A stretch of 64,000 nucleotides of DNA from Nitrospirota bacterium (GTDB lineage Bacteria; Nitrospirota; UBA9217), in NCBI GenBank assembly GCA_963836175.1, contig CAWIIS010000004.1:47480-111479 (forward strand), in the 5' to 3' direction. Position numbers and translations under genes: made by a program. The notes beneath the pieces were generated by a model that saw nothing but the letters and a program-made list of their open reading frames with translations, was not told where the DNA came from and made no database searches. Shown in pieces: positions 3,987 through 60,532 of the stretch. Within the stretch, counting starts at the first letter, position 1. Each line of letters starts with the position of its first letter.

Positions 3987-4083
3987 CCCTGAGAAGGAGA
4001 TCGTAGTGCGTACCGCGGAATGAATAGCAGCCGGGCGGCCAGCACTGCTGGCCGCCCGGTTTGCTGAAAACATTCAAACGTGC

Positions 4084-4629: not shown

Positions 4630-4731
4630 ATCAACGTCTCCTTTCAAAAATTACTCGCAATGCATCCCGCCAATAATAGCAAAACTTCCTCTGATGTCAA
4701 GCGTAATACCTGCCCTTTTCGGCCGCGCATG

Positions 4732-7172: not shown

Positions 7173-9494
7173 GACTTCCTTTCTTCCATTGGCAGCGTGA
7201 ACGAAAACGTGCTTCCCTTCCCCGGTTCGCTTTCAGCCCGGATCGTTCCGCCCAGCAGCTCCACCAGCCGCTTGCAGATCGAAAGGCCCAGCCCCGTGCC
7301 TTCGTATCTTCGCGTGATGCCGCTTTCCACCTGGTAAAAGGGCTCGAACAGCTTGGGCAGGTCCTCTTTCTTGATGCCGATCCCGGTGTCGGCGATCGTG
7401 ATCTCGATGCGATCAGCGTCGAGTTCGGAGCTATGGGTTTGTAGTTCGGGGTAAGCACTTTGCTGTTCCGAACTCCGGACTCCCGACTCCGAACTGTCTT
7501 TACTCCCGACTCCCAACTCCGTACTCCGAACTCTCAGTGCATTGATATGCACCGAGCCCCCCCCGGGCGTGTACTTGACCGCATTACTCAGCAAATTGAG
7601 AAGGACCTGCTCGACCCGCCGGTGATCGCTGGTTATCGTGCCTATGGTGTGGTCGATCTCGACCGCGATGTCCAGGCCTTTTTTTTCCGCCAGCGGGCGC
7701 ATGGTTTGCACCGTCTTCAAAACAGCCGTTCTCAGGTCAAAAGGCGTTGAAGCGACTTTCAGCTGTCCTGCTTCGATTTTTGAAATATCCAGGACATCAT
7801 TGATGAGCGCAAGAAGATGGTCCGCGCTGTTTTGGACCATTTCCAGCTGCTTTTTCTGTTCATCGTTGATGGGTCCGGGCAGGCCCTGACGCAGAATGCC
7901 CGTAAAACCGATGATGGAATTGAGGGGCGTTCGCAGTTCGTGGGACATGGTGGCCAGGAAGGCCGACTTCAGGCGGTCCGCTGCCTCGGCGCGGTCCCGG
8001 GCAACGGCAAGCTCTTCCAGCGCGGTGCGAAGTTCATTTTCAGCCCGCGACCGCTCCTCGATCTCGCTCTGCAGCTTCGCATTCGTGTCCTCGAGGGTCG
8101 TCGTCCGGTCCTTGACGAGTTCCTCAAGGTGGTCCTTATATTCCAGCAGCTCGTGCTGGGCCCGTTTGCGTGCGGTGATGTCAATGGCGCTGCCGACCAC
8201 CAGGGGAGTTCCCTCCGCATCGACCCGTCTGCCGGTAAAAAGAAAACATCTCTCCCCTTCCCGGGTATTGATCCTCGCTTCCGCTTCGACCTCGCCGGTT
8301 CTGAATGCTTCCCTGATGGAACGCGCGATGATTTCCTTGTCTTCCTCATGGATATTGCGCAAACTGCTCATGCCCTGCAGTTCCTCGGGAGCCAGTTGAT
8401 TGAGATTTTGCAGATAGCGGTTCCAGCGAACGAGGCGGCCGGCAGTGTCGATCACATAAAAGGCCCCGGGCACGCTGTCGATGATGATCTCCGCGAACGC
8501 CTTTTCCTTTCTGAGGGCCGCTTCCCGCTGCTCCATCTCCTGATTGATCTGTTTCAGTTCCCGGGTGCGCGCATCGACCCGGTGCTTCAAGACGAAGCTT
8601 CCGGCCAGGCTCATGATCAGCACCACCCCCGCCACCGGGCCGAGGATCTGCACCCATGCCGGCAATTTGAACTGCACCTCTTCGGAAGTCCATCGTTTGA
8701 GCGACGCATAATACACCGATTGATGGTCATTTTTTAAGCTCAGAAAGGTGACGGTCGATGGCGCCGAGCAATCGTTTGGGGTCGCTTTTAGGCGCCGCGA
8801 AAAAGAGCTCGGCCGGGTCGAACATGACCGCGGTATCTTCAAGTCCGGCCTTTTTTGCGTGCATCAAGCCGTAGAAACGGTTGGTGATGGCGGCGTCGGC
8901 CCTGCCTTTGGCGACCATCTCAAAGATGGTCTTGTAATCCGGTACGGAAATAAGCGTGACGCTTAATCCGAAGCTGTTTGTGAGCCGTTCAAATGTGTTC
9001 TGCTGAATCGAATGCTCCAGAACGGCAACGCGTTTTTCATTCAGGTCCAATATTGATTGGATCTTGCTGCCTTTTAAGGCATAGACCTGCGACCAGGAGG
9101 ACAGGACCGGGACCTCGTGAAAAGAGTACATCTTTTCCCGGTCCGCCGTATACGCCACATCGGGCATGAGATCGATCTCCCCTTTTGCCAGGCGGTCCAA
9201 TCCCTCCGCCCAGGTGCCGGACAAGTAGCGCAGTTCCCATCCTTCGCTTTTCGCTATGTGCTCGATGATATCGATAAAGATGCCTGAGGCTTTGCCGGAC
9301 CCGGAGGTGAAGACCTTCGGGGGATTTTCATAGACGCCGACAGTCACCGTCCGGACATCGGCTTGTGCGGGAGTGGTTGCAAAAAATGAAACAAGCAGCA
9401 GGGCGGAAAGGGTCAAAGAAAAGACGGGAAGCAGAGAAAGAATACGAAGCAGGAAAAAGGGGGGGCCCGTTCTGTGTTTATTGTTCCCCAACAT
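7169..9494 (-). pseudogene. periplasmic-binding-domain (SBP_bac_3) - TM - PAS - histidine kinase, split by a frameshift at an A6 run (~8730)
   Basis: SBP ORF 8727-9494 (start MLGNNK at 9494, AAGGA RBS) ends ELKK*; removing one A gives ELKNDHQSVYYASLKRW...TM...PAS-HisKA-HATPase of ORF 7169-8842. Confidence 0.65.
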
Positions 9495-31170: not shown

Positions 31171-31452
31171 GTGATCAAATCGTTCAAAAGTAAGGAAGCT
31201 GAAAAGTTATTTCATGGCTGGTTCTCCTCGAAATTGCCGCAAGCAATTCAACGGAGCACTGCAATAAAACTTGAACTGATTCATGCCGCGACCATGATCG
31301 AAACACTGCGAATCCCGCCGTCAAATCATCTTGAGGAATTGAAAGGTGAAAGGAAGGGGCAGCACAGCATCCGCATCAATAAACAGTGGAGGATTTGTTT
31401 CACTTGGAAAGGCAGTGATGCCTACGACGTTGAAATTGTCGATTACCATTGA
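31171..31452 (+). CDS. higB: HigB-family (RelE/ParE superfamily) toxin
   Basis: 93 aa; MIKSFK...LKGERKG...W(R)I(C)F...VDYH signature of HigB/killer protein family. Confidence 0.8.
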   Translation: MIKSFKSKEAEKLFHGWFSSKLPQAIQRSTAIKLELIHAATMIETLRIPPSNHLEELKGERKGQHSIRINKQWRICFTWKGSDAYDVEIVDYH

Positions 31453-31463
31453 AAGGAATGAAT

Positions 31464-31775
31464 ATGAAAACAAAAAAACGCGACTTTTCTCCCATCCATC
31501 CGGGCGAGATCCTGGTATCGGAATTTTTGGAGCCGATGGGTATCAGTCAATACCGCTTGGCAAAAGACATCGGTGTAACACCTCGACGCATTAACGAGAT
31601 TGTACATGGACGACGAGCTATTTCCGCAGACACGGCGTTGCGGCTGAGCCATTTTTTCGGCATGGAAGCGCAGTTTTGGCTCAACCTGCAATCAAGATAT
31701 GATATGGAAGTAGCCAGAGAGCTACTTCACGATAAAATCATCAAACAAGTCCGTCCCTTTTCCCGCGCAGCATAA
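31464..31775 (+). CDS. higA: HigA antitoxin (XRE-family HTH)
   Basis: HPGEIL...LAKDIGVTPRRINEIVHGRRAISADTALRL...FWLNLQ; immediately downstream of higB. Confidence 0.8.
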   Translation: MKTKKRDFSPIHPGEILVSEFLEPMGISQYRLAKDIGVTPRRINEIVHGRRAISADTALRLSHFFGMEAQFWLNLQSRYDMEVARELLHDKIIKQVRPFSRAA

Positions 31776-32061
31776 TATCATCATAACGAAAGGCTCGGCT
31801 TCGTCTGGGGCGATTAACCCGCCCGGCGGGTCAGCCTTGCGTTCTCGCCGTCGCTTCGCGACGCCAGAATGGGGCACCGCGCCCTCAGCCGAGCCGTTCT
31901 CCGGTCGGTCGGATAGATCAAGGGGATATTTGATGCCAGGCCCAGGGAATTTCTTTTTACACCACTTAATAAACCTTCCCCAGTAGCACTCCGCGTCACC
32001 GCAATCCCTCTCTTGCTTTTCCTCCCCTCCTGGTCTATGTTTTAATTGAGGAAACAAGCAC

Positions 32062-40888: not shown

Positions 40889-41890
40889 TTAAGGACCAAG
40901 AAAGGCCTTCGGTGCCCTATATTCATGGCAGGTCGCACAGATTTTTTTGGCCTGCTCATTCGATACCTTCCAGACATGGGGCTTGTGGCACTCGTTGCAT
41001 TTCATACCCGTGTCCTGAACATGGGTCTTGTGTTTGCCGATCGCCATGATATTTTTATGGCAGGAGAGGCAGTTGCCCCAGTCAGGCCGTGAGGCTTTGT
41101 GAGGCTTGTGGCATTCATAGCAGTTGAACTGCATGGGCCCGTTTTCCGGCCTGTCGATCTTGATCGCGCGGCGGATCGTTTTTTCGTCGGGTTGGAAATG
41201 GGTGACATCGAGTGTCGCGTCGGCCAGCAGTTCTTTCCGGTATTTTTCGGCGCCATGGCAGTAGAGGCACTTTTTCACCCCTGGTTTGAGGTCTTTTGTC
41301 CTGTCCGTATGGCAGTTGAGGCATGCAAGCTTCTCCATCCCTGTTCCGTGCACTTCTCTGTCCTGGTGGCACGTCAGGCAATATCGTTCCTCGAGGCTGA
41401 ACTGATGGGTCCGGTAGCCGTGGCATTTTGTACATTCGATCTTCTCGTTAAAGACATGCTTCGCATGGTATCTTGAATTGCTGATGCTTGGCGCGTCCGG
41501 GAATTTATCGTTCTTGTCCCAATGGCAGGCAAAGCATGTCTTCCACGGCACGATAACTTCACCGTGCCGGGGTGAAACCTTGTTATGACCGAGCACGACA
41601 AAATTGAAGAGCTGTCTCATCTGGTCGGCCTTGGTAGAGTGGTGGCACTCATGGCAGTTTAATCCACGATGTACACTGGTCTCCCATGCCTTGTTTGCTT
41701 CATCATGAACATGACAGGCAGAGCATGCCTTGGGATCGTTCTCGAAGTAATCGTTTACCAGGTAGGCTGCAAAGAGGGACCCGAGTGAAAACAGGACCAA
41801 GACTGCGATGATAATGATCCTGGCCCTGCTTGAAATATCCGTGCTGAACCACGCACCTATTCTTTGGAAAATTGAAAACGGACTAAACAT
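40889..41890 (-). CDS. membrane-anchored multihaem c-type cytochrome (11 CxxCH motifs)
   Basis: N-terminal TM helix; CSACH, CHECH, CFACH, CTKCH, CLTCH, CLNCH, CLYCH, CYECH, CLSCH, CNECH, CATCH. Confidence 0.8.
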   Translation of the reverse strand: MFSPFSIFQRIGAWFSTDISSRARIIIIAVLVLFSLGSLFAAYLVNDYFENDPKACSACHVHDEANKAWETSVHRGLNCHECHHSTKADQMRQLFNFVVLGHNKVSPRHGEVIVPWKTCFACHWDKNDKFPDAPSISNSRYHAKHVFNEKIECTKCHGYRTHQFSLEERYCLTCHQDREVHGTGMEKLACLNCHTDRTKDLKPGVKKCLYCHGAEKYRKELLADATLDVTHFQPDEKTIRRAIKIDRPENGPMQFNCYECHKPHKASRPDWGNCLSCHKNIMAIGKHKTHVQDTGMKCNECHKPHVWKVSNEQAKKICATCHEYRAPKAFLGP

Positions 41891-46989: not shown

Positions 46990-48000
46990 TTACTGGCGGA
47001 ACAGCTCCTTATCCAGGTATTTGTTCCTGCCGCCGACGCTCTGTTGGATGTAGGAGCCGCTCAGCGTTTTACCGTTCTCTGACATGGTCAGGTCGTAGGT
47101 CTCGGTCTTCCAGTAGGCCGGCATGGTCTTCATCTTCCATTTGATCTGCACTTTGAGGGTCTTTTCCGTGATTTCAAACTCCCGCACCGTACCGACATTA
47201 TTCTCGCCCCGGTTCGGGGGAAGGACGCTCAGTTCACCGTTGTTGTTCACGATCTCGAAACCCTGAACGACCGTATCTTCCGTGCCACGGAGCTCCTTAA
47301 AGGACCAGCTCCCGACAAAGCTCGGTATCTTTGACTTCTTGTCCTGGGGCAGCTTGACCACCTTCAGCGGCAGGTCTTTCTCGATGTCAAGCTCCGGCTT
47401 GGTGCTCATCATCGGCGCCGGTTTGGAAACCGTCACACCCGGAGCAGCGGCTGACGGAGCGGCGGCTGTTTCGGGAATTGCCGCAGAGCTCGTTTCCTGC
47501 GCTTCCTCAACAGTCGCTTCAAGCATATAGATCTGGTTTCTCACTTCCCGGATGTTCTTTGCGCGCGGGTTTGCCAGCAGATAAAGTTTGAGGCTCCTGA
47601 TCGCCTCTTTGTACATCGCTGCTTTTTCCTGCGCCACGCCGAGATTATAGTATGCCTTGTCGAGCCAGGGCGCGGCATTGGTTGCAGCCTCGAATTCGAC
47701 AATGGCTTTTTCATAACCGGCGTTGTCCGTTGCTTTGGTAAAGAAAACGACTCCGCGCGCCATGTTGCGTTCGGCTTCCTCGGGAACCGCGGGCGCGGGC
47801 TTCATGGTCAGTGCAAACTTGATGATCTTTTCGCGCAGGGCCTTGTCGCCCGGATTTTTCTGAAGGTCTGCAACATACTGGTCGAACGTTTCCGCAGGTG
47901 CGCCGGAGGCCTTTTTGGGTGCCGCCGAAGCAACGGTCGGAAGAAAGCACGCGAGGAGCAGCATCGCGATAAATACCCTGGTTTGTATCACAAAGGACAT
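46990..48000 (-). CDS. secreted protein with N-terminal TPR-like region
   Basis: AAGGAGA RBS; signal peptide MSFVIQTRVFIAMLLLACFLPTVASA. Confidence 0.5.
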   Translation of the reverse strand: MSFVIQTRVFIAMLLLACFLPTVASAAPKKASGAPAETFDQYVADLQKNPGDKALREKIIKFALTMKPAPAVPEEAERNMARGVVFFTKATDNAGYEKAIVEFEAATNAAPWLDKAYYNLGVAQEKAAMYKEAIRSLKLYLLANPRAKNIREVRNQIYMLEATVEEAQETSSAAIPETAAAPSAAAPGVTVSKPAPMMSTKPELDIEKDLPLKVVKLPQDKKSKIPSFVGSWSFKELRGTEDTVVQGFEIVNNNGELSVLPPNRGENNVGTVREFEITEKTLKVQIKWKMKTMPAYWKTETYDLTMSENGKTLSGSYIQQSVGGRNKYLDKELFRQ

Positions 48001-48397
48001 ATTTTTCTCCTTAATCTTTAAACAGTTGTATCTCGCGCAGGCCGCTATGCAAAAGTATGAACCTGTGCAATAAAAGACAGGCAAGCCCGCTACTTACGCG
48101 GCGAGCTTCGTAACCTGCTGATATTATGGATCAATTTTTATCGCGTCTCATATATTAACTGAAATGCACGGGAGAGTCAAGAGGTGTTTTTCAAAGATGA
48201 TCGACAGACTTCTGAGAAATGGCATTTGAGAAGGGTAAAATCTGATAACAATCGGATAACTATGGATTTTATTTGATTGTTTCAGCCTTTTGGATAGAAC
48301 TGTTTTTTGTTATTATCCGTGTAAATCCGCTTCGATATCACATGGCTCACAACCACCAGGCGCGGAAGCGCGGGCTTCGCGACCGCAGAAAGCGCGC

Positions 48398-51268
48398 CTA
48401 CCCCTTCATGGGCGTGCCGGACTCGATCCAGATATCGACGGCAGCAGGGTCCATGGCCCGGGAGAAGAGGAATCCCTGCCCGAACTGACACTGGAGGTCC
48501 TTGATGCTCGAGAGCTGGTGGTCGAGCTCGATCCCTTCGGCAATGACCTCCAGGTTCAGGCTTTTGGCCAGCGTAACGATGGAAGTAATGATGGCATCGT
48601 TCTCGCCGCTCGCCAGAAGCTTTGCGACAAAAGCGCGGTCGATCTTGAGCGCCGTGATCGGGAAACGGTGCAGATGGCTCAGCGAGGAATAGCCGGTGCC
48701 GAAGTCGTCTATGTGGATCTGAACGCCCATTGTGCGCAGGCGGCCCATGGTCTCGATGGCGCTCTCAATGTCCCCCATGATCATGCTCTCCGTGATCTCG
48801 AGGGCCAGGCACTCCGGTTTGAGGCCGGTTTCGAGCAGGATCCGCGTTACGATCTCGGCCAGGTCGGAGCGGGAGAACTGCTTTCCCGATATGTTCATGC
48901 TCATTTTGAGCGGCGGGTCCTGGGGGTACCGTTTTTGCCACAGTTTGAGGCGGCGGCAGGCCTCGAACAACACCCACTCTCCGAGCGGGCCGATCAGGCC
49001 GGTCTCCTCAGCGAGCGGAATGAACTCCATGGGGTAGATCAGTCCCTGACGCGGGTGGTTCCACCGGATCAGGGCTTCGAAGCCGATAAGCCGGGAGGCA
49101 TGCAGATCCATGATGGGCTGATAGTGCAGGACGAACTCCTGCTGGTCCACGGCCCTGCGCAGGTCCGCTTCGAGCTGAAGGCGGGCGATGACCCCGGCGT
49201 GCATCTGTGAGTCGTAGATCTCATAGCAGGACCCGCCCCGCGCCTTGGCCTGATACATGGCGATGTCGGCATCGCGCAGCACCTGCTCGGGCCGCTCATA
49301 GCCGGGGGCGCTCGGGGCGATGCCGATGCTGACGCCGGTAAAGACGCTGTTCCCGGCGAGGAGGATGGGGAGCGCCAGCTCCAGGCGGATCCGTTCGGCG
49401 ATGTCAACGGCGTCGCTGACCGTGCTGATGTTCTCGAGCAGGATCGCGAATTCATCGCCGCCGAGACGCGCCACGGTATCGCCCGGCCGCAGACAGCCGG
49501 ACACTTTTTTGCCGACTGCGATGAGCAGCTGGTCGCCGGCAAGGTGGCCCAGGCTGTCATTGATGACCTTGAAGCGGTCCATGTCGAGGAATAGAACGGC
49601 AAAGAGCGCGTCCCCGCGGCGCTTGGTGCTGTCGATGAGGTGCTGCAGCCGGTCCATGAACAGCGCCCGGTTCGGCAGCCCCGTAAGCGCATCGTGGAAA
49701 GCGTCGTACAACAGCTGCGCCTCGGCGCGCTTCCGCGTCGTAATGTCGGTCTGGGACCCTGCCATGCGGTAGGCCCGTCCGGTCTTGCCGCGAACAGCTA
49801 TCCCGCGGTTCAGCACCCAGCCGTAGGCGCCGTCCTTGTGGCGGATGCGGAACTCTCCCTCGAAAGGCTGATTATCACCGATGACGTGGGAGGCGATCAT
49901 CGCCTCCAGCGCGACCCGGTCGTCGGGATGGACCCTGCCGAGCCATTCCTCGGGTGCGTTCGATATTTCCATGTCGCTGAAGCCCAGCATGTTTTTCCAG
50001 CGGGGTGAGTAGTGGATCGTATTGGCCCGCAGGTCCCAGTCCCAGAGGCCGTCGTTGGCGCCGCGTGCGGCGAGGGCGTAGCGCTCCTCGCTTTCACGGA
50101 GCGCCTCTTCGGTCTTCTTGCGCTCCGTGATGTCGCGGGTATATTCGACCACGTGCGAGATCCGCCCGTCCTGGGAAATAAGAGGGTATGTATAGATCTC
50201 AAGCCACATCCTGTGGCCGTCGGGGGTGCTCACGAGCTTCTCCTTTGCGCAGGAGTCGCCTGATAAAAAGGTCTTCTGGACGATGCAGTTGTTGCAATGC
50301 GCCGTCCGGTCGTAGAGCACGTCGTAGCATTTGTTGTTGACCAGCCCGGAAAGCTGCACGTGCTTCAGCTCTGCATAGGCTTCGTTCGCCCGGACGATCC
50401 GGTAGTCGCGGTCGAAGATGCAGAACGGGTCGTGGATGCTGTTAAAGATGTTGTTCAGGAACGACTCGGAGCCCATGAGGGCGGCTTCGGTCTGCCTGCG
50501 CTCGGCAATCTCGTTCTTAAGCTTGGCGTAGCCGTTCTTCAGCGCCGCGCTCATGGTGTTAAAGTTGGAGGAGAGTTCGCCGAATTCCGTCTTGTCGGAG
50601 ACCACAACCTGGTATCCCAGTTCGCCGGCCGTGATCCGGCGCGTGGCCTCCACCAGGATGCCGATCGGCCGCGTAATGGCAGCGGTCAACTGCAGGGCGA
50701 CGGCGGCTCCGAAGGCAAAGGTGGCGATCATCATGCCGAAAATGATCATCCCTGTCCTTTTGATCTTGCCCATGACGTCGCGTGTCATGGTTTCGAGCCG
50801 GCGGCTGGCCTGGATGGACATCTTCTCGGTCTCCATCAGCAGTTTGTTGCCGGTTACCGCGGCTTGCATCTTCAGCTTCAGGATGTGCGGATTGTTGGCT
50901 GATGCGGTTATGTAATAGCTCAGGTCTCCCTCATAGGCGAGGACCATGGACCGGATCATGTTGAGCTGCGCGGTGATCTCGGGCGAGTGATGACAGGTTA
51001 TGCAGTTTGACGACGCTTTGTCCAGGCGGTTGACCCTGTCCGAGATCTCGTCGAGCTGGCTGCCCAGGGCGGTGTTAACGGTGTAGAGGTCGGACTGGAC
51101 CGCCTGGATGGACATGATGAGGTCCTTCCGGAGGTCTTCGATCTGGTGGAGCGTGACCAGGCGGCTGAGCGTGCCGGTGGTGTTGACGATATACAGCGAG
51201 GCGAAGCCCGCGCTCAGGACCGTGAAGAGAAACAGGGCGAGCAAATACAGCAGGATCTTTCGTTTCAT
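48398..51268 (-). CDS. membrane sensor GGDEF/EAL protein with periplasmic haem-c (CxxCH) helical sensor, HAMP and two PAS domains
   Basis: TM1, periplasmic ~140 aa with NCITCHH, TM2-HAMP, PAS x2, GGDEF (RLGGDEF), EAL (EALIRW...DDFGTGYSS). Confidence 0.8.
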   Translation of the reverse strand: MKRKILLYLLALFLFTVLSAGFASLYIVNTTGTLSRLVTLHQIEDLRKDLIMSIQAVQSDLYTVNTALGSQLDEISDRVNRLDKASSNCITCHHSPEITAQLNMIRSMVLAYEGDLSYYITASANNPHILKLKMQAAVTGNKLLMETEKMSIQASRRLETMTRDVMGKIKRTGMIIFGMMIATFAFGAAVALQLTAAITRPIGILVEATRRITAGELGYQVVVSDKTEFGELSSNFNTMSAALKNGYAKLKNEIAERRQTEAALMGSESFLNNIFNSIHDPFCIFDRDYRIVRANEAYAELKHVQLSGLVNNKCYDVLYDRTAHCNNCIVQKTFLSGDSCAKEKLVSTPDGHRMWLEIYTYPLISQDGRISHVVEYTRDITERKKTEEALRESEERYALAARGANDGLWDWDLRANTIHYSPRWKNMLGFSDMEISNAPEEWLGRVHPDDRVALEAMIASHVIGDNQPFEGEFRIRHKDGAYGWVLNRGIAVRGKTGRAYRMAGSQTDITTRKRAEAQLLYDAFHDALTGLPNRALFMDRLQHLIDSTKRRGDALFAVLFLDMDRFKVINDSLGHLAGDQLLIAVGKKVSGCLRPGDTVARLGGDEFAILLENISTVSDAVDIAERIRLELALPILLAGNSVFTGVSIGIAPSAPGYERPEQVLRDADIAMYQAKARGGSCYEIYDSQMHAGVIARLQLEADLRRAVDQQEFVLHYQPIMDLHASRLIGFEALIRWNHPRQGLIYPMEFIPLAEETGLIGPLGEWVLFEACRRLKLWQKRYPQDPPLKMSMNISGKQFSRSDLAEIVTRILLETGLKPECLALEITESMIMGDIESAIETMGRLRTMGVQIHIDDFGTGYSSLSHLHRFPITALKIDRAFVAKLLASGENDAIITSIVTLAKSLNLEVIAEGIELDHQLSSIKDLQCQFGQGFLFSRAMDPAAVDIWIESGTPMKG

Positions 51269-51328
51269 AAAGAATCAGCTCCTGCTGCTATAGCGGCCCC
51301 GGCTGCACAGAGGCGACGCCCCTGCCCG

Positions 51329-52222
51329 TTATTTGTTCCGGTAGTCATATTGTTTTATATCGATCCCCGCTTTTTTGGCCATATCATAAACCGGCTGGTA
51401 GTCGCTGACGTTCGTACCTATGAACCGGAGAGCGCCGAACTGCTGCAGCACGGCGGCCCCCTCGGGGTCCTTGTCCAGGCCCAGGAGTGCCTGCTTGAGT
51501 TTCCGCTTCAGACCTTCATCGAGCCCCTTGCGCACGCACAGCCCGTTCGAAGGCACCCAGGGCGATTCGGCAATGATGACCAGATCTCGGGCCACGCGCG
51601 AATCGTCCGCTTTCATCCTGTCGTAGATGCTGTGCTTTGCCGCGCCGATATCGGCCTGGCCTTCCAGCACCGCATAGATGGCCGCATCATGGCTTCCTGC
51701 AAAATAGGTGCTGCTGAAGAAATGGTCCATGTCCTTGATGCCGCGTTCATTAAGATAGGCGAGCGGAAAGAGGTAGCCGGCGGTTGTCGCCTTTTCAACA
51801 AAGACCATTTTCCTGCCTTTCATGCCGCGGACATCACGGATCTTGCTGTCCTTGCGCACGAAGAGGTACCCGCGGTACGAGGCAGTGCCGTCGAGGTTCA
51901 CCGGACGGGCAAGAGGGACGACCCCCAGTTTCTCGATGGCCAGTGCGCCGGTAAAGGAGCCGAAAAAAACACCGTCCATGTTCTCGGACGTAAACCGGTC
52001 GATGATGTTGCCGTAGCGGCTCAGGATGGTGAATTTGACTTTCACGCCGGTATTTTTTGAGAGATAGTCTCCAAGCAGGCGGAAGCGCTCCTTCTGCTTG
52101 AATACGTTCATCTCCGGAATGAGGCCGATGAGGAGCATTTGCTGGGAAGCCTGGGGAAAGGCGAGGAGTGGGACAAGCGCGAGGATCGAAATAAAGAAAA
52201 CCGAACGTACGATCCGTTTCAT
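51329..52222 (-). CDS. PhnD/SsuA-type (phosphonate-binding family) periplasmic substrate-binding protein
   Basis: GGAGGT RBS; signal peptide; Phosphonate-bd-like sequence; directly upstream of and co-directional with the haem-sensor GGDEF/EAL gene. Confidence 0.65.
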   Translation of the reverse strand: MKRIVRSVFFISILALVPLLAFPQASQQMLLIGLIPEMNVFKQKERFRLLGDYLSKNTGVKVKFTILSRYGNIIDRFTSENMDGVFFGSFTGALAIEKLGVVPLARPVNLDGTASYRGYLFVRKDSKIRDVRGMKGRKMVFVEKATTAGYLFPLAYLNERGIKDMDHFFSSTYFAGSHDAAIYAVLEGQADIGAAKHSIYDRMKADDSRVARDLVIIAESPWVPSNGLCVRKGLDEGLKRKLKQALLGLDKDPEGAAVLQQFGALRFIGTNVSDYQPVYDMAKKAGIDIKQYDYRNK

Positions 52223-52562
52223 CATTACCTCCATCAGCGTCCGCAAAAAATAAGGATTTACAGCTTCGGTATTGTAATATAATGCGACTGAAAGTCAACA
52301 ATTATGTGCTTTGTTTTGGTTGTACAAAACTAATTGTGTGGTTGCCGGAAAAGGACGACGTCGGCCACGGAGGAACAGCAGACTTCGCGCCTGGCGTCTC
52401 AGCGGTTAAAATCGACTTCCAGCGGGCCCGCCAATTTTAATGCGGCTCTGATAGGAACAGGTCTCCGTCAAGGTTTTCCAATTGCCCCAGATGCGATAAC
52501 CGGTTATACTGGTACCCGTGAGCATGATAGGCTTGCGACCCGACTGTAGAGCAAAGGACCAA

Positions 52563-53059: not shown

Positions 53060-54131
53060 ATGAAAAAAAGTTCAGCGGTCCTGATCATCGCCCTGCTGTT
53101 CTCAGGCGGCTGCATGTCCCGCCACGACAGGGAAGCAGGAAGCGTGCCCCGCTTCGAGGACCGGCAGATGGAGAACGTGACCAGGCTTACCAATGACGGC
53201 GACAACGGCGAGGCCTACTTTTCCCAGGACGGGAGGAAGCTTATTTTCCAGTCGAGCCGCGGGGGCTATGCCTGCGACAAGATCTGGACCATGAACATCG
53301 ACGGTTCGGACAAGCGGATGGTGAGCCCGGACCACGGGGCCAATACGTGCTCATTCTTCTTTCCCGATGGACGGATCGTATTTGCCTCCACGAACCACCA
53401 GTCCCGGCGACTGTCCTCCCCGGCCCGAGGCGCCCAAAGGCGTCCGCTACGTCTGGCCGCTCTATCCCTACGATATTTTCACGGCAGACGCCGACGGCTC
53501 GAACCTCAGGAAGATCACCGATAATCCGAAATACGATGCCGAACCGGTGGTCTCCTCCGACGGGAAGCAGATCGTGTTCGGGTCCCAGCGGGAAGGCGAT
53601 TTCGACATCTATCTCATGAACGCCGACGGCACGAACGTGCGGCGGCTCACGGAGCGGGTGGGCTATGACGGCGGACCCTGGTTCTCGCCCGACAACACAA
53701 AGATCGTCTGGCGCGCCTGGTATCCCGGGACGGATGAAGAAAAGGCCCGATGGCAGGACGCCATGGACAAGGACTACATCATCGCCGTGCCGCTGGACCT
53801 CTGGGTCATGGACGTTGACGGGTCGAACAAGAGGATGGTCCTGCATAACGGGGCAACCAACTGGGCGCCGTCATGGCATCCTGACGGCAGAAGGCTCATC
53901 TTTTCGAGCAACATGGACGACTGGCGCGAGGACATCAAACAGTATGGCCACAACTTCGAACTCTATTTCATCAATATTGACGGCACGAAGCTTACGCGGC
54001 TCACCTTCAACACCACCTTCGACAGCTTCCCCCTGTTCTCGCCTGATGGAAAGAAGCTGGTTTTCGCTTCGAACCGGGACCCGCAGAAGCCGCGGCAGAC
54101 GGATATCTTCATAGCGGACTGGGTGGATTGA
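53060..54131 (+). pseudogene. TolB-like periplasmic beta-propeller (PD40 repeat) lipoprotein, frameshifted near 53410 (C-run)
   Basis: lipobox LFSGGC; PD40 repeats (S.DG..i.F.S.R.G...i) in ORFs 53060-53524 and 53367-54131. Confidence 0.6.
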
Positions 54132-54345
54132 TACTTTTCTGCTGTCAGCGTGTCAGGGAAGGCGATCAATCCCGGGTGTACTGCTCCAGGAAAGAAACCA
54201 GCGGCAGCGAAGGATATTTTCCCGCCGGCCCGCCCCAATTCAGTTGCAACCAACTTTTTGCGCTTTTCTGCTATACTATTGCTTAAATATTACATGACAG
54301 TACCTGAGTAAATCCTGAGCTATTTGCGTGGTCGGGAGTGCAGGC

Positions 54346-57141
54346 ATGGCGGATAAAAAGAAACCAACCGAAGGGAAAAAGGCGAAAACGAAGAGTTCCA
54401 GGAAGAAGGCCGCATCTTCCCGGTCCCGGACCGCAGGCCCCGCCAAACCAGCTGGTCACGAACGCAAACAGACGGAGGAAGCGCTGCGCCGAAGTGAGAA
54501 GAACCTCAAGAAAGCTGAAAAGATCGCCAAGATCGGAAATTGGGAGTGGAACATCCTCACGAACGAGCTTGTCTGGTCCGAGGAGGTGTACCGGATCTAT
54601 GGCGCTGATCCGCTCAAGGATAAGCCTTCTTACGATATTGTTGTGAAGACCGTTGCACCCGAGTGCCGGGACCGGTTCGTCAAGGCAGTGGAGGACGCCG
54701 TCAGACTCGACAAGCACTTCGAAGGCGAGTACCGGATGATCGGTTTGGATGGCAGGGAGCGCTTTACCCATACGAGCGGAGAGGTCGTCCGCGACCGCGA
54801 CAATCGGCCCGTGTCGATGTTCGGAATCGTGCAGGACATCACCGAGCGCAAACGTGCGGAGGAAGCGCTGCAGGAAAACGAAGACAAGTTCCGGTCCATA
54901 TTCGAACAGGCAATCGACGGGATCATGATAGCCGATCCCGCGCAGAGAAGGAACATCGAGGCGAACAGGGCCATCTGCGCCATGCTCGGATACACCCGCG
55001 ACGAGCTCATCGCACTCAGTGTTGAGGAGACGCATCCGAAAAAAGACCTGCCGCGCGTCCTGGACCTTTTCGAGCGCCAGGTGCGGGGAGAGATATCGAT
55101 GGCGCCGGACGTCCCTATGGTGCGGAAGGACGGCTCCGTTTTCTATGCAGACGTCAACGCCAGGCCGGTGATCATCGGCGGGAAACAGTGCCTCATCGGG
55201 GTCTTCCGCGACATCACCGAACGCAAGCAGGCCGATGAAGCATTGCGCGAGCGCGAGAAGCAGCTTGCCGAATCACAGCGCATCGCGCACATCGGCAGCT
55301 GGGAGCACAACCTGACGACCGGCAGGGTGTTCTGGTCTGACGAACTGTTCCGTCTTATGGGGCTTGATCCCCGGAAGGACCCGGCCGACTTTACGATGTT
55401 CTTCAACATGATCCATCCCGACGACCAGCCTGTCCTGAAAAAGGGAATTGAAGAGACGGTGAAGACCGGAAAACAGTTCAGCGTTGATTATCGATTCATC
55501 CTCAAGGACGGCACGACCAGGATCCTGCATGCCCAGGCGGAGCTCAAGCGCGACGAGACCGGCACCCAGGCCATCCTGAGCGGGACCGGGCAGGACATCA
55601 CCGAGCGCAAAGAGGCCGAGAAAAAGATCCGGCAGAACGAGGAGTTTATCAGGAGCATCCTCGACACCGTGGACGAAGGGTTCATCGTCATAGACCGCGG
55701 CTACCGCATCCTGACCGCCAACAGGGCCTACTGCGGCCAGGTTGCGCGGTCGTGCGACGACATCATCGGCAGGCACTGCTTCGAGATATCGCACAACAAC
55801 AGCCGGCCATGCTTCGAAGAGGGAGAGGAGTGCGCCGTCCGGCAGGTCTTTGCGACCGGGAAGCATCACGGAGTGCTCCATAAGCATCGTGATCATGAGG
55901 GGAACGTGCTTTATGTGGAAACGAAAGGATTCCCCATCAAGGACGCCGAAGGCAACGTTACCTCGGTGATCGAGACGGTCAATAATATCACGGAGAAGCA
56001 TCTCCTCGAGGAAGAGCGGCTCAAGACCCAGAAACTCGAATCCATCGGCATGCTGGCCGGCGGGATTGCCCATGACTTCAACAACCTGTTGCAGGGCATT
56101 TTCGGCTACATCTCCATGGCAATAATGAGCTATGATCAGAAAGAAAAGTCGCTCGCCATGCTCGGGCAGGCGGAAAAGGCGCTCCACCAGTCGGTGAACC
56201 TCACGACCCAGCTCCTGACCTTCTCCAAGGGAGGCAAGCCGGTCAAGAAGCCGATGTCCCTGGAACCCGTGGTCGAGAATGCCGTAAAGTTCGCGCTCAG
56301 CGGTTCGCGCACCGGGTACCAGTTGAATATCGACCACGGGCTGTGGCACGTGAACGGCGACGCAGGCCAGCTGGGTCAGGTGATCCAGAACATCGTGCTG
56401 AACGCAGACCAGGCCATGCCGAAGGGCGGCGTGGTGAAGATCGTTGCGAGGAATGTTGCCGCCAACGACAGGTCGCTGCCGTCCACGCTTGCAGCGGGCA
56501 ACTATGTCGCTCTCACGATCGAGGACAATGGTGTCGGCATACCGGAGGCCTATCTGAACAATATATTCGACCCCTATTTTACCACCAAGGAAAAGGGCAG
56601 CGGATTGGGGCTGGCTACATCCTATTCGATCATCCGGAACCACCAGGGACAGCTTCTGGTCGAATCAGAGGCCGGCAAAGGGAGCCTGTTCTCACTTTTT
56701 ATTCCCGCATTTACGACCAGGACTGCGGCTGAGACCATCAGTCAGATGACGCCTGCAGTCGTACCGAAATCGAGGATCCTGGTGATGGACGACGAAGAAA
56801 TGATCAGGGGTCTCGCCATGGAATTGTTGCGCGAGCTCGGGCATGAGGTGGAGGTTGCAGCGGACGGCGAATCGACAGTGGCCCTCTATAAGGAAGCGGT
56901 TGCAGCGGGCAAGCCCTTCGACATCGTCATCCTCGACCTTACGGTCCGCGGCGGCATGGGAGGGGCGGAGACGATCCAGAAGCTGCGCGAGATCGATCCA
57001 CAGGTCAGGGCTGTGGTATCGAGCGGCTATTCAGACGGCGCGGACGTTTCCGAATATCGGCAACAGGGATTCCGGGCATATTTAAAGAAGCCCTATGATA
57101 TCGCGGAATTAAATAACGCACTGCAGACGGTATTAGCTTGA
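54346..57141 (+). CDS. hybrid sensor histidine kinase with four PAS domains, HisKA, HATPase_c and C-terminal receiver
   Basis: GGGAG RBS; PAS x4; H-box AHDFNNLLQ; N/G boxes; REC with D...D...K. Confidence 0.8.
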   Translation: MADKKKPTEGKKAKTKSSRKKAASSRSRTAGPAKPAGHERKQTEEALRRSEKNLKKAEKIAKIGNWEWNILTNELVWSEEVYRIYGADPLKDKPSYDIVVKTVAPECRDRFVKAVEDAVRLDKHFEGEYRMIGLDGRERFTHTSGEVVRDRDNRPVSMFGIVQDITERKRAEEALQENEDKFRSIFEQAIDGIMIADPAQRRNIEANRAICAMLGYTRDELIALSVEETHPKKDLPRVLDLFERQVRGEISMAPDVPMVRKDGSVFYADVNARPVIIGGKQCLIGVFRDITERKQADEALREREKQLAESQRIAHIGSWEHNLTTGRVFWSDELFRLMGLDPRKDPADFTMFFNMIHPDDQPVLKKGIEETVKTGKQFSVDYRFILKDGTTRILHAQAELKRDETGTQAILSGTGQDITERKEAEKKIRQNEEFIRSILDTVDEGFIVIDRGYRILTANRAYCGQVARSCDDIIGRHCFEISHNNSRPCFEEGEECAVRQVFATGKHHGVLHKHRDHEGNVLYVETKGFPIKDAEGNVTSVIETVNNITEKHLLEEERLKTQKLESIGMLAGGIAHDFNNLLQGIFGYISMAIMSYDQKEKSLAMLGQAEKALHQSVNLTTQLLTFSKGGKPVKKPMSLEPVVENAVKFALSGSRTGYQLNIDHGLWHVNGDAGQLGQVIQNIVLNADQAMPKGGVVKIVARNVAANDRSLPSTLAAGNYVALTIEDNGVGIPEAYLNNIFDPYFTTKEKGSGLGLATSYSIIRNHQGQLLVESEAGKGSLFSLFIPAFTTRTAAETISQMTPAVVPKSRILVMDDEEMIRGLAMELLRELGHEVEVAADGESTVALYKEAVAAGKPFDIVILDLTVRGGMGGAETIQKLREIDPQVRAVVSSGYSDGADVSEYRQQGFRAYLKKPYDIAELNNALQTVLA

Positions 57142-57190: not shown

Positions 57191-60100
57191 ATGAGGCATA
57201 CCATCCCGATCCGCTTTTTGCTATATGCTGTACTGGCTGGTCTGATACCGCTGTCCGGACAGGCCTTTGGACGTGACGCTCACATCCACCACGACCTCAA
57301 GGTCACGCTCCAGCCTGCCGCGCACCGCCTGAGCGTCATCGACACGATCACGCTGCCTGCCGGCACTCCGGATGAGATCATCGTTGTACTGCATGCCGGT
57401 CTCAAGCCCCGGTCAACGACACCGGGGGTAAAAATCACGAAAGAGGCGAGCATCACCCGTACCGTTCCCGTCGAGGTCTATCGGGTGCGGCTTCCGGCCG
57501 CGGTTCGCGCCTTCACGCTCCGGTATGGCGGTGTCATCGACCATCCGCTTGAGGCCGCAGGCGCGGAGCAGGCGCGGGGGTTCCAGGATTCGCCGGGGCT
57601 GATCACCAGCGACGGCGTGGTCCTGTCGGGGAGCACGAACTGGTATCCCGATCCCGGCCCAGGCCTCACGACCTTTGATCTCGAGGTCGCGCTGCCGGAA
57701 GCATGGGACGCCGTGAGCCAGGGCGAACGGACGCTCCACGAGCTGCAGAAAAAAAAGTCCACGGTCCGCTGGCAATCTTCGGAGCCGCAGGAGGAGATCT
57801 ACCTTGTGGCGGCGAAGTTCATTGAATACGACAAGCCCGCCGGCCCCGCCCGCGCCATGGTGTTTTTGCGCACGGCCGATCCCGGCCTGGCCGGCAAGTA
57901 TCTCGACGCCACGGCACGCTACCTCGCCCTGTACGACAAGCTCATCGGGCACTATCCCTACAAGAAGTTCGCGCTGGTCGAGAACTTCTGGGAAACGGGC
58001 TTCGGCATGCCGTCGTTCACGCTGCTCGGGCCGAAGATCATCCGTTTGCCCTTCATCATCAACACTTCCTATCCTCACGAGATCCTGCACAACTGGTGGG
58101 GCAACAGCGTGTTCCCGGAGTATGAGAACGGCAACTGGTCCGAAGGCCTCACCGCCTATCTTGCCGACCATTTGATGAAGGAGCAGCAGGTCGGCGGGGC
58201 CGAGTACCGGTTGAACACCCTCCAGAAGTACGCCGACTACGTGGTCGGCAACAGGGACTTTCCGCTCACCGGGTTCCGTTCGCGCCACAGTTCGTCCTCC
58301 GAAGCGATCGGGTACGGCAAGTCGCTCATGTTCTTCCACATGCTGCGGCTCATGCTGGGCGATGAGGTCTTCCGGCAGGGGCTTCAGGGTTTTTATCAGA
58401 GCTACCGGTTCCGTTCTGCAGGCTTTGACGATCTCCGCGCGAGCTTCGAAGCCGTCTCGAAAAAAGATCTGGCGCGGGAATTCGAGCAATGGGTCGCGCG
58501 AACAGGCGCCCCCATCCTCAAGGTAAGCGGGGCCAGTGCGCTGGCTGTGCAGGACGGGTTCCTGCTCACGGCCCGGATCGAACAGACGCAACCGGGCGAA
58601 GCCTATCTTCTTCGCGTTCCCGTGGCGATAACCATGGGCGGCAAGGACAAGGCATTCCAGACGGTCGTCACCATGTCGGAGAAAAAGCAGGACCTGGAAC
58701 TTCGCGTCCCCGGCCGTCCGGTGAGGCTCGATGTGGACCCCGAGTTCGACCTGTTCCGCAGGCTCGATATTTCTGAAATGCCGCCCGCTCTGTCACAGGC
58801 GTTCGGCGCAAAAAAGATGCTGGTCCTTTTGCCGTCGTCCGCGCCAGAGGAACTGCTTCAGGCCTACCGCGAGCTTGCCGCGTCCCTCGGCAGGTCCGGG
58901 CCGGATGAGATCGAGATCAAGCTTGATGCGGAGGTCGCGGCTTTCCCGACTGACCGGGCCGTGACCGTTCTCGGCTGGGAGAACCGGTTTCTGAACGAGA
59001 CCACGGCCGCCCTGGCAGGATACGATGTGCTCGTAAACCCGCAGGCCGTCCGCATCAACCAGACCGAGCTGGACCGGAGCGGACATGCGTTCGTCTTTTC
59101 CGCACGGCTTCCGAAGAACAAGGACCTCGCCCTGCTGTTCATTGCAGCGGACCGCGCAGACGCCCTGCCCGGCCTCGGCCGGAAGCTGCCGCACTATCAC
59201 AAGTACAGCTATCTTGCCTTCGAGGGAGCAGAACCTGCCAATGTGGCAAAAGGCAGATGGACGGTCGCAGATTCCCCCCTCACCGTGCTGCTGCCTGATG
59301 TCGATGGAAAGGTGCGCAGGGTCGAGATGGCCAAACTGGCTGCGCGGGAGCCGCTGGCTGTGCTGCCCGCGGGTTTCTTGAAAGAAGCGATGAGCGAGAC
59401 AGTGCACTACCTGTCGGGCAGGGAGCTCGAAGGCCGCGGCGGCACGCGCGGGCTTGACAAGGCAGCTGATTATATTGCAGAGCAGTTCAAGCTGGCCGGG
59501 CTGCTGCCGGCAGGCGATCAGGACACCTGGTTCCAGGCATGGGAGGAAAGCGGCGGAGAGCCGATGCGCAAAGCAGTCATGAAGAACGTGATCGGCATCA
59601 TCCCGGGAAAGGACCCGGCCATGGCCGGCCAGAGCGTCGTGGTCGGTGCGCATTACGACCACCTGGGGCTCGCGCAGGAAGGCAGAAAGGGAACGGTCCA
59701 TCCCGGAGCGGACGACAACGCAAGCGGCGTGGCTGTGCTGATAGAGCTTGCGCGCGTGCTGGCAAAAGCGCCGCCCCCGGATCGCACCATTGTTTTCATC
59801 GCCTTTACCGGCGAGGAAGCGGGAAAGCGCGGCTCGCAGTTTTACGTGCTGAACGAAAAGAAGTACCCGGCAGCCAAATGCATCGGCATGGTGAACCTCG
59901 ACACCGTCGGCAGGCTCGGCAAGGGGAAGCTCCTGGTGCTCGGCGCAGGTTCGGCAAAAGAGTGGGTCCATATCTTCCGGGGGGCGGGTTTCGTGACAGG
60001 CGTTGATATCGAAACCGTGTCGCAAGAGCTGGATTCCAGCGACCAGATGAGCTTTCAGGAAAAGGGGGTGCCCGCGGTCCAGCTCTTCTCGGGCCCCCAT

Positions 60101-60532
60101 CCTGATTATCATCGCGCAACGGACACCTTCGACAAGATCGATGCGGACGGGCTCGTGAAAGTGGCGGCTGTTGCCAAAGAAGTTGTTGAGTATCTTGCGG
60201 GCAGGCCGGAACCGCTGACCGGATCGGGTGCAGCCCCGGCCGGCGCCGGGGCTTCAGCGAAAACGGAACGGAAAGTGAGCCTCGGCACGATCCCGGATTT
60301 TGCGTATCAGGGCAAAGGATTCAGGCTTTCCGGCATGATGTCCGGCTCTCCGGCGGAAGCCGCGGGGATGCAGGAGGGCGACGTGATCGTCAGGATCAAC
60401 GCTGTCCCGATCAGCGGGCTCAAAGACTTTTCCGATCTCCTGAAGACCTTGAAGCCGGAGGACCGGGTGGGCGTTCTGTTCCTGCGGGATGGCAGGGAGA
60501 TGAAGGTCGAAGCAGTGGTGAAAGAGCGGTAG
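57191..60532 (+). CDS. secreted multidomain peptidase: M1-like (HEILH...E) + M28 aminopeptidase + C-terminal PDZ
   Basis: signal peptide; HEILHNWWGN...NWSEGLTAY gluzincin motif; M28 motifs HYDH / DDNASGVA / EE; PDZ GMQEGDVIVRINAV. Confidence 0.75.
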   Translation: MRHTIPIRFLLYAVLAGLIPLSGQAFGRDAHIHHDLKVTLQPAAHRLSVIDTITLPAGTPDEIIVVLHAGLKPRSTTPGVKITKEASITRTVPVEVYRVRLPAAVRAFTLRYGGVIDHPLEAAGAEQARGFQDSPGLITSDGVVLSGSTNWYPDPGPGLTTFDLEVALPEAWDAVSQGERTLHELQKKKSTVRWQSSEPQEEIYLVAAKFIEYDKPAGPARAMVFLRTADPGLAGKYLDATARYLALYDKLIGHYPYKKFALVENFWETGFGMPSFTLLGPKIIRLPFIINTSYPHEILHNWWGNSVFPEYENGNWSEGLTAYLADHLMKEQQVGGAEYRLNTLQKYADYVVGNRDFPLTGFRSRHSSSSEAIGYGKSLMFFHMLRLMLGDEVFRQGLQGFYQSYRFRSAGFDDLRASFEAVSKKDLAREFEQWVARTGAPILKVSGASALAVQDGFLLTARIEQTQPGEAYLLRVPVAITMGGKDKAFQTVVTMSEKKQDLELRVPGRPVRLDVDPEFDLFRRLDISEMPPALSQAFGAKKMLVLLPSSAPEELLQAYRELAASLGRSGPDEIEIKLDAEVAAFPTDRAVTVLGWENRFLNETTAALAGYDVLVNPQAVRINQTELDRSGHAFVFSARLPKNKDLALLFIAADRADALPGLGRKLPHYHKYSYLAFEGAEPANVAKGRWTVADSPLTVLLPDVDGKVRRVEMAKLAAREPLAVLPAGFLKEAMSETVHYLSGRELEGRGGTRGLDKAADYIAEQFKLAGLLPAGDQDTWFQAWEESGGEPMRKAVMKNVIGIIPGKDPAMAGQSVVVGAHYDHLGLAQEGRKGTVHPGADDNASGVAVLIELARVLAKAPPPDRTIVFIAFTGEEAGKRGSQFYVLNEKKYPAAKCIGMVNLDTVGRLGKGKLLVLGAGSAKEWVHIFRGAGFVTGVDIETVSQELDSSDQMSFQEKGVPAVQLFSGPHPDYHRATDTFDKIDADGLVKVAAVAKEVVEYLAGRPEPLTGSGAAPAGAGASAKTERKVSLGTIPDFAYQGKGFRLSGMMSGSPAEAAGMQEGDVIVRINAVPISGLKDFSDLLKTLKPEDRVGVLFLRDGREMKVEAVVKER

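Follow-up and report, generated by a model that had tools for sequence, protein, structure and literature searches.

The two-gene locus

The DNA analysed here is a stretch of 64,000 nucleotides (nt) from a Nitrospirota bacterium (GenBank assembly GCA_963836175.1, contig CAWIIS010000004.1, positions 47,480 to 111,479 of the forward strand), which we call the window. Two adjacent genes on its minus strand encode a membrane-bound sensor with domains for the synthesis and hydrolysis of cyclic di-GMP (c-di-GMP) and a periplasmic solute-binding protein (Table 1). An earlier reading of this DNA, made without database searches (the sequence-only reading), had proposed a c-type haem sensor paired with a PhnD-like binding protein at 48398-52222. 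These coordinates correspond to two minus-strand open reading frames (ORFs) and are accurate, as is the description of the genes.

The sensor has 956 amino acids (aa) and is composed of a first transmembrane helix (TM1), a helical periplasmic domain of 145 aa, a second transmembrane helix (TM2), and HAMP, PAS, PAS, GGDEF and EAL domains in this order. The HAMP-PAS-PAS-GGDEF-EAL part behind the periplasmic loop, which had been proposed before, was confirmed by Pfam and by the translation. The N-terminal residues MKRK, TM1 (residues 5-27), TM2 (residues 173-194) and the cytoplasmic HAMP domain together place residues 28-172, most of which are polar, in the periplasm, and according to this predicted topology the CxxCH motif of the protein is located on the periplasmic side of the membrane. 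As read from the translation, the motifs of the GGDEF domain are complete (GGDEF, the RxxD I-site in the form RPGD, DxLT..NR, LDMDRFKVIND and GHLAGD), and so are those of the EAL domain (EALIR, the N in MNISG, EITES, DDFGTGYSS, KID and AEGIE). In NCBIfam, the best partial matches of the sensor are c-di-GMP phosphodiesterases and cyclases, all of them below the equivalog cut-offs. A look-up with the exact sequence of the sensor protein gave no record.

The PhnD-like gene reported to lie immediately upstream on the same strand is real: its product matches PF12974, and the spacer between the two genes is 60 base pairs (bp) long. The binding protein begins with MKRIV, the sequence GGAGG is present 5 nt upstream of its ATG, and a further in-frame ATG is found at 52225. 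The best-scoring promoter-like sequence of the region precedes the binding-protein gene (Table 1). No comparable site was detected when the 60-bp spacer was scanned, which fits the existence of one bicistronic transcript. The best reading of the locus is that the two genes form a single sensory cassette.

Table 1. Coordinates in the window of the sensor, the binding protein, their promoter and a multihaem cytochrome
Feature	Position	Strand	Basis
Sensor/effector gene, 956 aa	48398..51268	-	ORF, Pfam and NCBIfam
TM1, residues 5-27, preceded by MKRK (positive-inside)	51188..51256	-	Hydrophobic sequence; continuous helix 2-63 in the model
Periplasmic sensor domain, predicted four-helix bundle, residues 28-172	50753..51187	-	AlphaFold2, Foldseek
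H41-x2-E44-x2-R47, helix 1, level with the CxxCHH loop	51128..51148	-	Conservation; helix register
C89-I-T-C92-H93-H94, putative covalent haem c attachment site, helix 2-3 loop	50987..51004	-	Invariance in the family
TM2, residues 173-194	50687..50752	-	Hydrophobic; continues helix 4 in the model; HAMP directly after
HAMP, residues 195-244	50537..50686	-	PF00672, 9.7e-11
First cytoplasmic PAS, residues 270-384	50117..50461	-	PAS_9 and PAS_4
Second PAS (PAS_3), residues 418-504	49757..50017	-	PF08447, 2e-22
GGDEF diguanylate cyclase domain, residues 523-679	49232..49702	-	PF00990, 8e-46
EAL phosphodiesterase domain, residues 701-937	48458..49168	-	PF00563, 4e-74
Orphan periplasmic solute-binding protein, 297 aa, PhnD/PtxB/AioX family, N-terminal signal peptide (MKRIVRSVFFISILALVPLLAFPQA)	51329..52222	-	PF12974, TIGR01098
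Sigma-70-like promoter, TTGACT / 16-nt spacer / TACAAT	52271..52298	-	10/12 consensus matches; consensus match only
ORF of 333 aa with 11 CxxCH motifs	40889-41890	-	Matches to cytochrome c3 and c7 families

An invariant CxxCHH motif in the periplasmic domain

The sequence NCITCHH (residues 88-94, DNA 51007-50987) is the sole CxxCH of the 956-aa protein; from the composition, the chance expectation of CxxCH in such a domain is approximately 2.4e-4. The sequence-only reading had located this single motif in an all-helical periplasmic loop, in agreement with our analysis, according to which the loop has 145 aa and, in the AlphaFold2 model, four helices. It had also made the haem proposal depend on the conservation of the two Cys and the His in orthologues. 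These residues proved to be invariant in a family that is otherwise divergent. Among 108 aligned full-length members (identity of the periplasmic domains: median 30%, minimum 11%), C89, C92 and H93 are present in 108/108 sequences and H94 in 107, and exactly two periplasmic cysteines were counted in 106. Conservation is also high at H41 (102/106), E44 (92 members) and R47 (101/107), while M150 is present in 86/108 members and is replaced by I, L, V or A in the remainder.

The same result was obtained with larger and with more fragmentary sets of relatives. All 147 proteins listed from an exhaustive profile search contain CxxCH, 145 of them as CxxCHH, with few exceptions at residue 89. When the N-terminal 198 residues were used in a word-indexed search, 18 relatives were obtained, mostly gene fragments, and C-x2-C-H is found in every one that covers the region. 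As judged from these sequences, the NCITCHH motif is not due to chance. Of the residues on helix 1, H41 is a candidate for the distal haem ligand, and R47 a candidate partner of a haem propionate or of an anion.

Bacterial cytochrome c maturation systems recognise a strict C-x2-C-H in an exported segment and require little else of their substrate. A cytochrome of the c3/c7 type with 11 CxxCH motifs is encoded in the same window (Table 1), which implies that this organism has a c-type maturation system. Moreover, the family is found in cytochrome-rich anaerobe lineages, which we count in favour of haem. We consider it likely that the CxxCHH motif receives a covalent haem.

Predicted fold of the periplasmic domain

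AlphaFold2 gave a moderate model when it was run with an alignment of 17 sequences (predicted local distance difference test score, pLDDT, 76), and a confident one with 82 sequences (pLDDT 92, predicted TM-score 0.78). The latter has helices at residues 2-63, 72-89, 96-121 and 126-197 and no strands. It corresponds to an up-down four-helix bundle, the first and last helices of which run on into TM1 and TM2. In Foldseek searches against the PDB the top match was 4k0d (Adeh_2942, a histidine kinase of Anaeromyxobacter; target TM-score 0.81, root mean square deviation 2.4 Å, 14% identity), followed by the sensor domains of PcaY, NarQ and Tar. The periplasmic domain is predicted to be a four-helix bundle of the Tar/NarQ type. 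The analogy to the periplasmic haem-PAS sensors of Geobacter, which had been drawn from the sequence, has to be corrected in this respect: the functional likeness stands, but a Tar/NarQ-like four-helix bundle is not the PAS/Cache fold of the known haem c sensors.

At the sequence level, no such relationship was detected. Residues 1-194 have no Pfam match, and for four family members none was obtained even at E<=10, the sequence models TarH, 4HB_MCP_1, PilJ, HBM and similar ones included; a phmmer comparison of the N-terminal domain with PDB sequences also yielded nothing meaningful. No Pfam or NCBIfam model covers the periplasmic domain, and it is therefore currently invisible to annotation.

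Several known groups were considered for this domain and rejected. Membership in the PAS/Cache haem sensors was discarded in view of the all-helical model and of the lack of PAS, Cache or DUF3365 (PF11845) matches in residues 1-194. A relationship to cytochrome c' or cytochrome b562 was discarded since the motif is located in the α2-α3 loop and PF01322 does not match; no cytochrome c' or native b562 entry was found among the 50 Foldseek matches listed per search, and matches to fusions of G-protein-coupled receptors with bRIL were set aside as generic helical matches. The CZB zinc sensors were rejected on the lack of a Pfam match and on the spacing, which here is CxxCHH with a His 48 residues upstream.

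In the structure 4k0d, helices 1 and 4 are long, helices 2 and 3 are shorter, and the α2-α3 turn faces the membrane (PMC3831638). In our model CxxCHH is found in the short turn that links helix 2 to helix 3, which is the membrane-proximal end in this topology. According to the helix register, the CxxCHH loop is on this level together with H41, E44 and R47 of helix 1 and M150 and A154 of helix 4. Nearly all of the most strongly conserved residues thus appear to meet at the membrane-proximal level, beside the stalk that enters the membrane. By the same register, a second conserved patch is located at the membrane-distal tip (Q55, Q58, Y62, T63, T66, Y112, S117, T121, A124, N125 and G140).

The binding protein and its pairing with the sensor

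The binding protein matches PF12974 (Phosphonate-bd) with 2e-64 and 217.7 bits (gathering cut-off 27) and TIGR01098 with 179 bits (cut-off 112). Its score of 173.6 bits against the PhnD equivalog is under the cut-off of 261, and the protein is therefore not a PhnD proper. In the PDB, its best relatives are 7s6g and PtxB (5o2j), which are binders of phosphonate and phosphite, with approximately 1e-23, and then PhnD; further relatives, with approximately 1e-14, are the arsenate and arsenite co-sensors ArrX and AioX. In 52 orthologues, 43 residues are at least 98% conserved, among them Y70, T146 and G176-S177-H178, while Y115 is conserved to at least 95% and D179 to 80-95%. Y70, Y115, T146, G176-S177-H178 and D179 align with anion-binding positions of the solved relatives and are candidates for the anion pocket of PhnD. 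Domains of the PF12974 family recognize phosphonates, phosphite, arsenite and arsenate, and probably also tetrathionate and thiosulfate (PMC8050422; PMC5408782), and from this range we derive small oxyanions as the probable ligand class.

The pairing of the two genes was surveyed by tblastn with the binding protein of the window against 63 family loci (two metagenome contigs and 61 genomes). In 52 loci an orthologue directly precedes the sensor gene in the same orientation, and in one it directly follows it, so that the gene is adjacent in 53 of the 61 informative loci; in two further loci the flank is too short. When the ORFs of the 63 loci were clustered all against all, the sensor and the binding protein were the only families in common, apart from shadow ORFs and lineage-specific synteny. 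A third conserved gene (transporter, cytochrome, reductase or response regulator) was sought in this clustering and not found, and no gene for a permease or ATPase of the ATP-binding cassette (ABC) type is present in the neighbourhood in the window or in the related loci inspected. Mean pairwise identity is higher in the binding protein (61%) than in the sensor domain (50%). In our opinion the binding protein is probably not a transport component but a co-sensor.

The pairing extends to a distant member of the family, a histidine kinase of 484 aa with approximately 25-30% identity in the sensor domain. Its gene overlaps by 4 bp with an upstream gene for a binding protein that is 53% identical to ours, and is followed by a response-regulator gene.

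In L065 (positions 2977-8968), a locus with two kinases, four genes on the same strand encode, in this order, a HAMP-GAF histidine kinase without CxxCH, a PF12974 protein with a lipobox-like signal sequence, a histidine kinase with CxxCHH and a response regulator. The genes of the two kinases and of the PF12974 protein overlap, and 55 bp separate them from the regulator gene.

Size and distribution of the family

An exhaustive profile search among 1.84 billion cluster representatives revealed 184 proteins at E<=1e-30, and the family thus comprises at least 184 clusters (50% identity). The combination of domains had been called rarely annotated. This is correct in so far as no domain model exists, but it is not the oddity of a single gene. 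Members are present in Nitrospirota, Geobacteraceae (including the cultured Pelotalea chapellei DSM 13688), Desulfuromonadales, Desulfobacterales, other Desulfobacterota and Binatia. The closest match among genomes, with 90% identity in the N-terminal domain, is a metagenome-assembled genome of Nitrospirota. Among 50 full-length members from genomes, HAMP is present in all 50, the output is GGDEF-EAL in 41 and a histidine kinase in 8, and five of the latter also have a receiver. The annotations of the members in their sources are generic, for example "HAMP domain-containing protein", "signal transduction histidine kinase" or "diguanylate cyclase/PAS".

In the closest metagenome relative (L002, positions 6001-6705) the sensor gene is shortened to 234 aa and the adjacent phosphorylase gene is split into four. 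These are likely assembly frameshifts and not real truncations, and such frameshifts would account for the many fragments among the relatives in databases.

The first cytoplasmic PAS domain of the sensor contains a cluster of cysteines (C314-x10-C325-x2-C328-x11-C340) and, in addition, C283. This extra Cys-bearing PAS was found only in family forms of approximately 957 aa, in which C314, C325 and C328 are conserved (15 sequences) and C340 is present in 11. It may bind a metal or an iron-sulfur cluster and so add a cytoplasmic redox input.

Proposed mechanism

On the whole we favour, with some reserve, a combined picture of a haem c four-helix sensor with a dedicated binding-protein co-sensor. 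The parts of the sequence-only reading that could be followed computationally support it, with the fold analogy corrected as described above. The following course of events is a proposal on several points: that haem is attached, which residue ligates it distally, what the binding protein captures and where it docks, and in which direction the output changes. The sensor would be a dimeric protein of the inner membrane, with a Tar/NarQ-type periplasmic bundle whose helix 2-3 loop has acquired CxxCHH. After Sec insertion, the cytochrome c maturation system would attach one haem per protomer at this motif, with H93 as the proximal ligand; on the distal side, helix 1 would contribute its H41/E44/R47 face, and H94 or M150 might take part. 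In this arrangement the haem would be located approximately 15-20 residues above the membrane, against the stalk of helices 1 and 4 that runs into TM1 and TM2, and in this position altered oxidation state or axial ligation would shift the stalk. Electron exchange with the periplasmic cytochrome pool, or the binding of nitric oxide (NO), O2 or another small ligand, could be the trigger. The shift would be transmitted by TM2 and HAMP to the PAS domains and would change the balance between synthesis by GGDEF and hydrolysis by EAL.

In cytochrome c3, the second His of CxxCHH ligates between neighbouring haems. By analogy, a further and rather unlikely possibility is that the haem of one protomer is ligated by H94 from its partner in the dimer, which would couple the redox state to the geometry of the dimer.

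The binding protein would capture a small oxyanion of phosphonate-like geometry and, loaded with it, dock on the sensor as in the pairs AioX-AioS and NspS-MbaA, and as TorT and LuxP do with their receptors. The most plausible docking site would be the patch at the membrane-distal tip. As a net effect, c-di-GMP turnover would respond jointly to a chemical ligand and to the redox or gas state. A more far-reaching version, to which we give little credence, is a coincidence detector in which the PhnD-type protein presents to the haem-bearing bundle a redox-active oxyanion that is respired or oxidised by these anaerobes, such as phosphite, arsenite/arsenate, thiosulfate, tetrathionate or sulfite. 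The haem would then either react with the delivered ligand or report the charge state of the multihaem cytochrome pool, and if this were true, substrate availability and respiratory electron flow would together set c-di-GMP, biofilm formation and attachment to minerals or electrodes.

Points against the proposal and alternative explanations

Several observations weigh against the combined picture or weaken parts of it. No ccm or ccs gene was identified within the 64-kb window. The AlphaFold models carry no cofactor, and the proposed nearness of H41, R47 and M150 to the loop rests on the helix register. Activity of the two catalytic domains is predicted from their motifs only. The ligand class of the binding protein is extrapolated from relatives at about 25-30% identity, and in L065 the binding protein linked to the histidine kinase has a Tyr for the pocket His (FAGSYD). 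Eight loci with enough flank have no adjacent binding-protein gene, and the sensors encoded there keep both conserved patches. Loss of the tip patch was specifically looked for in these members and was not observed; the patch thus is not specifically tied to the binding protein, and this result lends no support to it as a docking site. The distance matrices of the sensor and the binding protein are correlated with r=0.68, which may reflect co-inheritance only and was not used as evidence for contact.

Among the alternatives, the haem could be real but belong to a five-coordinate gas sensor, chiefly for NO, and not to a redox reporter, with H41, R47 and H94 shaping a distal pocket. Cache domains with CxxCH that are coupled to signalling modules show properties of NO sensors (PMC12889525), and conserved polar distal residues such as H41, E44 and R47 are typical of ligand-discriminating pockets. 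However, the almost invariant His on the facing helix fits a bis-His low-spin coordination equally well, five- and six-coordinate haem cannot be separated by sequence, and the different fold means that the properties of Cache_heme are not simply transferable. We regard this explanation as possible, though not probable.

The CxxCHH loop and H41 could instead bind a metal (Zn, Cu or Fe) or serve as a redox switch based on thiols and a disulfide, and the bundle would then act as a periplasmic counterpart of the zinc-binding four-helix sensor domains. Two Cys and two or three His (93, 94 and 41) could indeed make up a site of the Cys2His2 type, which also counts against the haem; in addition, the nearest solved relatives in fold contain no haem, and no cytochrome family model matches the periplasmic domain. 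On the other hand, neither CZB nor any other metal-domain model matches it, the host encodes multihaem cytochromes and the family sits in cytochrome-rich lineages. A strict C-x2-C-H whose invariant His directly follows the second Cys is, in an exported protein region, the textbook maturation signal. A metal site or a disulfide switch is unlikely in our view, and haem remains the preferred occupant of the motif.

It is a little less likely still that the binding protein is the sole real signal input and that the CxxCHH site, whether it holds haem or a metal, only braces the α2-α3 turn and takes no part in sensing. A covalent cofactor could merely stabilise a short bundle, and the binding protein surpasses the sensor domain in conservation and accompanies all types of output. 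Yet related four-helix sensors fold without a cofactor (PMC3831638), all characterised periplasmic haem c sensor domains sense through the haem (PMC8396549), and in our model the invariant site adjoins the helices that carry the signal into the membrane. Finally, we regard it as very improbable that the binding protein serves in ordinary transport, or in something unrelated, and is only co-transcribed with the sensor without physical coupling: although PF12974 proteins are mostly subunits of ABC transporters and eight family members have no adjacent copy, the adjacency in 53/61 informative loci extends across phyla and outputs, sometimes with overlapping stop and start codons, no locus inspected has a permease or ATPase gene, and the PF12974 members AioX and ArrX are established kinase co-sensors (PMC8050422).

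Neighbouring genes in the window

Directly downstream of the sensor gene, a protein of 364 aa without a Pfam family is encoded at 46990-48084 (-). It has promoter-like sites of its own, a hydrophobic N-terminus as a possible signal peptide, and a faint TPR-like similarity to MamA. According to the ORF clustering, it is not conserved beside the cassette in other loci.

On the other side, approximately 2 kb upstream of the cassette and in the opposite direction, a hybrid histidine kinase of 937 aa is encoded at 54328-57141 (+). It contains three PAS regions, HisKA, HATPase and a receiver, and the Cys pattern of its third PAS resembles that of the sensor PAS (RHCFEISHNNSRPCFEEGEECAV). At 53060-54131 (+), the ORFs 53060-53524 and 53367-54131 overlap in different frames and look like one beta-propeller gene of the PD40/Tricorn type that a frameshift has divided; in L002, a syntenic relative, the gene is intact (383 aa), and the split is either a sequencing error or a sign of a pseudogene. 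Further along, at 57191-60532 (+), a protein of 1113 aa combines peptidase M1, peptidase M28 and PDZ domains. An M28 peptidase gene was also found downstream of the cassette in the related locus L001. The region 24001-32000 has in parts a GC content of 0.42-0.47 vs 0.54-0.63 across most of the remaining window, and may be a foreign island.

Comparison with known systems

The periplasmic haem c sensor domains that are treated in reviews have PAS-like or Cache folds only; they comprise DcrA, GSU0303/0582/0935 and Tll0287/DUF3365 (PMC8396549; PMC12889525). GSU0582, GSU0935 and GSU0303 of Geobacter and DcrA of Desulfovibrio are like the present sensor in having one periplasmic CxxCH site between two transmembrane helices and in belonging to anaerobic, cytochrome-rich bacteria, and they were proposed to read the redox state or small ligands (PMC8396549; PMC3831638). 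They differ in that their PAS-like/Cache alpha-beta folds feed chemotaxis, whereas the domain described here is an all-helical bundle with c-di-GMP enzymes or histidine kinases as outputs and with a dedicated binding protein. Cache_heme (DUF3365/Tll0287) is similar in another respect, since there too a pre-existing extracytoplasmic scaffold carries a family-wide short CxxCH element and is combined with several outputs; when fused to signalling modules, such CxxCH-bearing periplasmic Cache domains have the properties of sensors of NO and not of O2 (PMC12889525). In that case, however, the scaffold is a Cache domain and the motif is located on an inserted helix, while here it is found in the α2-α3 turn of a Tar-like bundle.

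The predicted fold is shared with Adeh_2942 (4k0d), Tar, NarQ/NarX and PcaY, in which helices 1 and 4 are likewise long and run into the transmembrane segments (PMC3831638). These proteins bind their ligands directly and have no cofactor motif, and Pfam and phmmer detected no similarity between them and the present domain. Cytochrome c' and cytochrome b562 also are four-helix bundles that hold one haem. The CxxCH of cytochrome c' is located near the C-terminus, in helix 4.

On the side of the binding protein, AioX-AioS and ArrX-ArrS are close parallels, as an orphan gene of the PhnD family is found beside a membrane sensor without a transporter; in a review of signalling by binding proteins, AioX-AioS is the PF12974 example and NspS-MbaA the sole GGDEF-EAL example (PMC8050422). 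AioS differs in being an sCache-like sensor without a haem motif, and the binding protein described here is closer to the phosphonate and phosphite binders. NspS is a polyamine binder of the PotD type and belongs to a family other than PF12974. In the NspS-MbaA system of Vibrio cholerae, the periplasmic binding protein is also encoded beside a membrane-bound GGDEF-EAL enzyme, and is thought to contact its periplasmic domain (PMC8050422). That domain is of another kind and has no cofactor motif.

In full-text searches of a limited literature set we found neither a haem c four-helix sensor nor a pair of a PhnD-type protein and a GGDEF-EAL enzyme, and c-type haem is unmentioned in a census of the sensory inputs of c-di-GMP signalling from 2022 (PMC8846402). 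The system proposed here is a haem c sensor on a four-helix scaffold that is systematically coupled to a PhnD-type co-sensor; it shares one trait with each of the known systems and is not categorically new. Its identification would be important for several reasons. It concerns a sizeable sensor family that so far has no annotation, at a time when the acquisition of cofactors by extracytoplasmic scaffolds has only just been recognised. The periplasm of the hosts, such as relatives of Geobacter and subsurface Nitrospirota, is filled with multihaem cytochromes, and their biofilms matter for metal reduction and for growth on electrodes; thus, the cassette could link respiratory electron flow and an environmental oxyanion to c-di-GMP. 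With Pelotalea chapellei DSM 13688 a cultured host is available, which makes the system testable. If the proposal is true, the family would represent a second, independent case, now on the Tar/NarQ bundle, of a classical ligand-binding scaffold that gained a cytochrome-type motif. It would also be the first case, as far as we found, in which a sensor domain with a cofactor systematically has a binding protein as its co-sensor.

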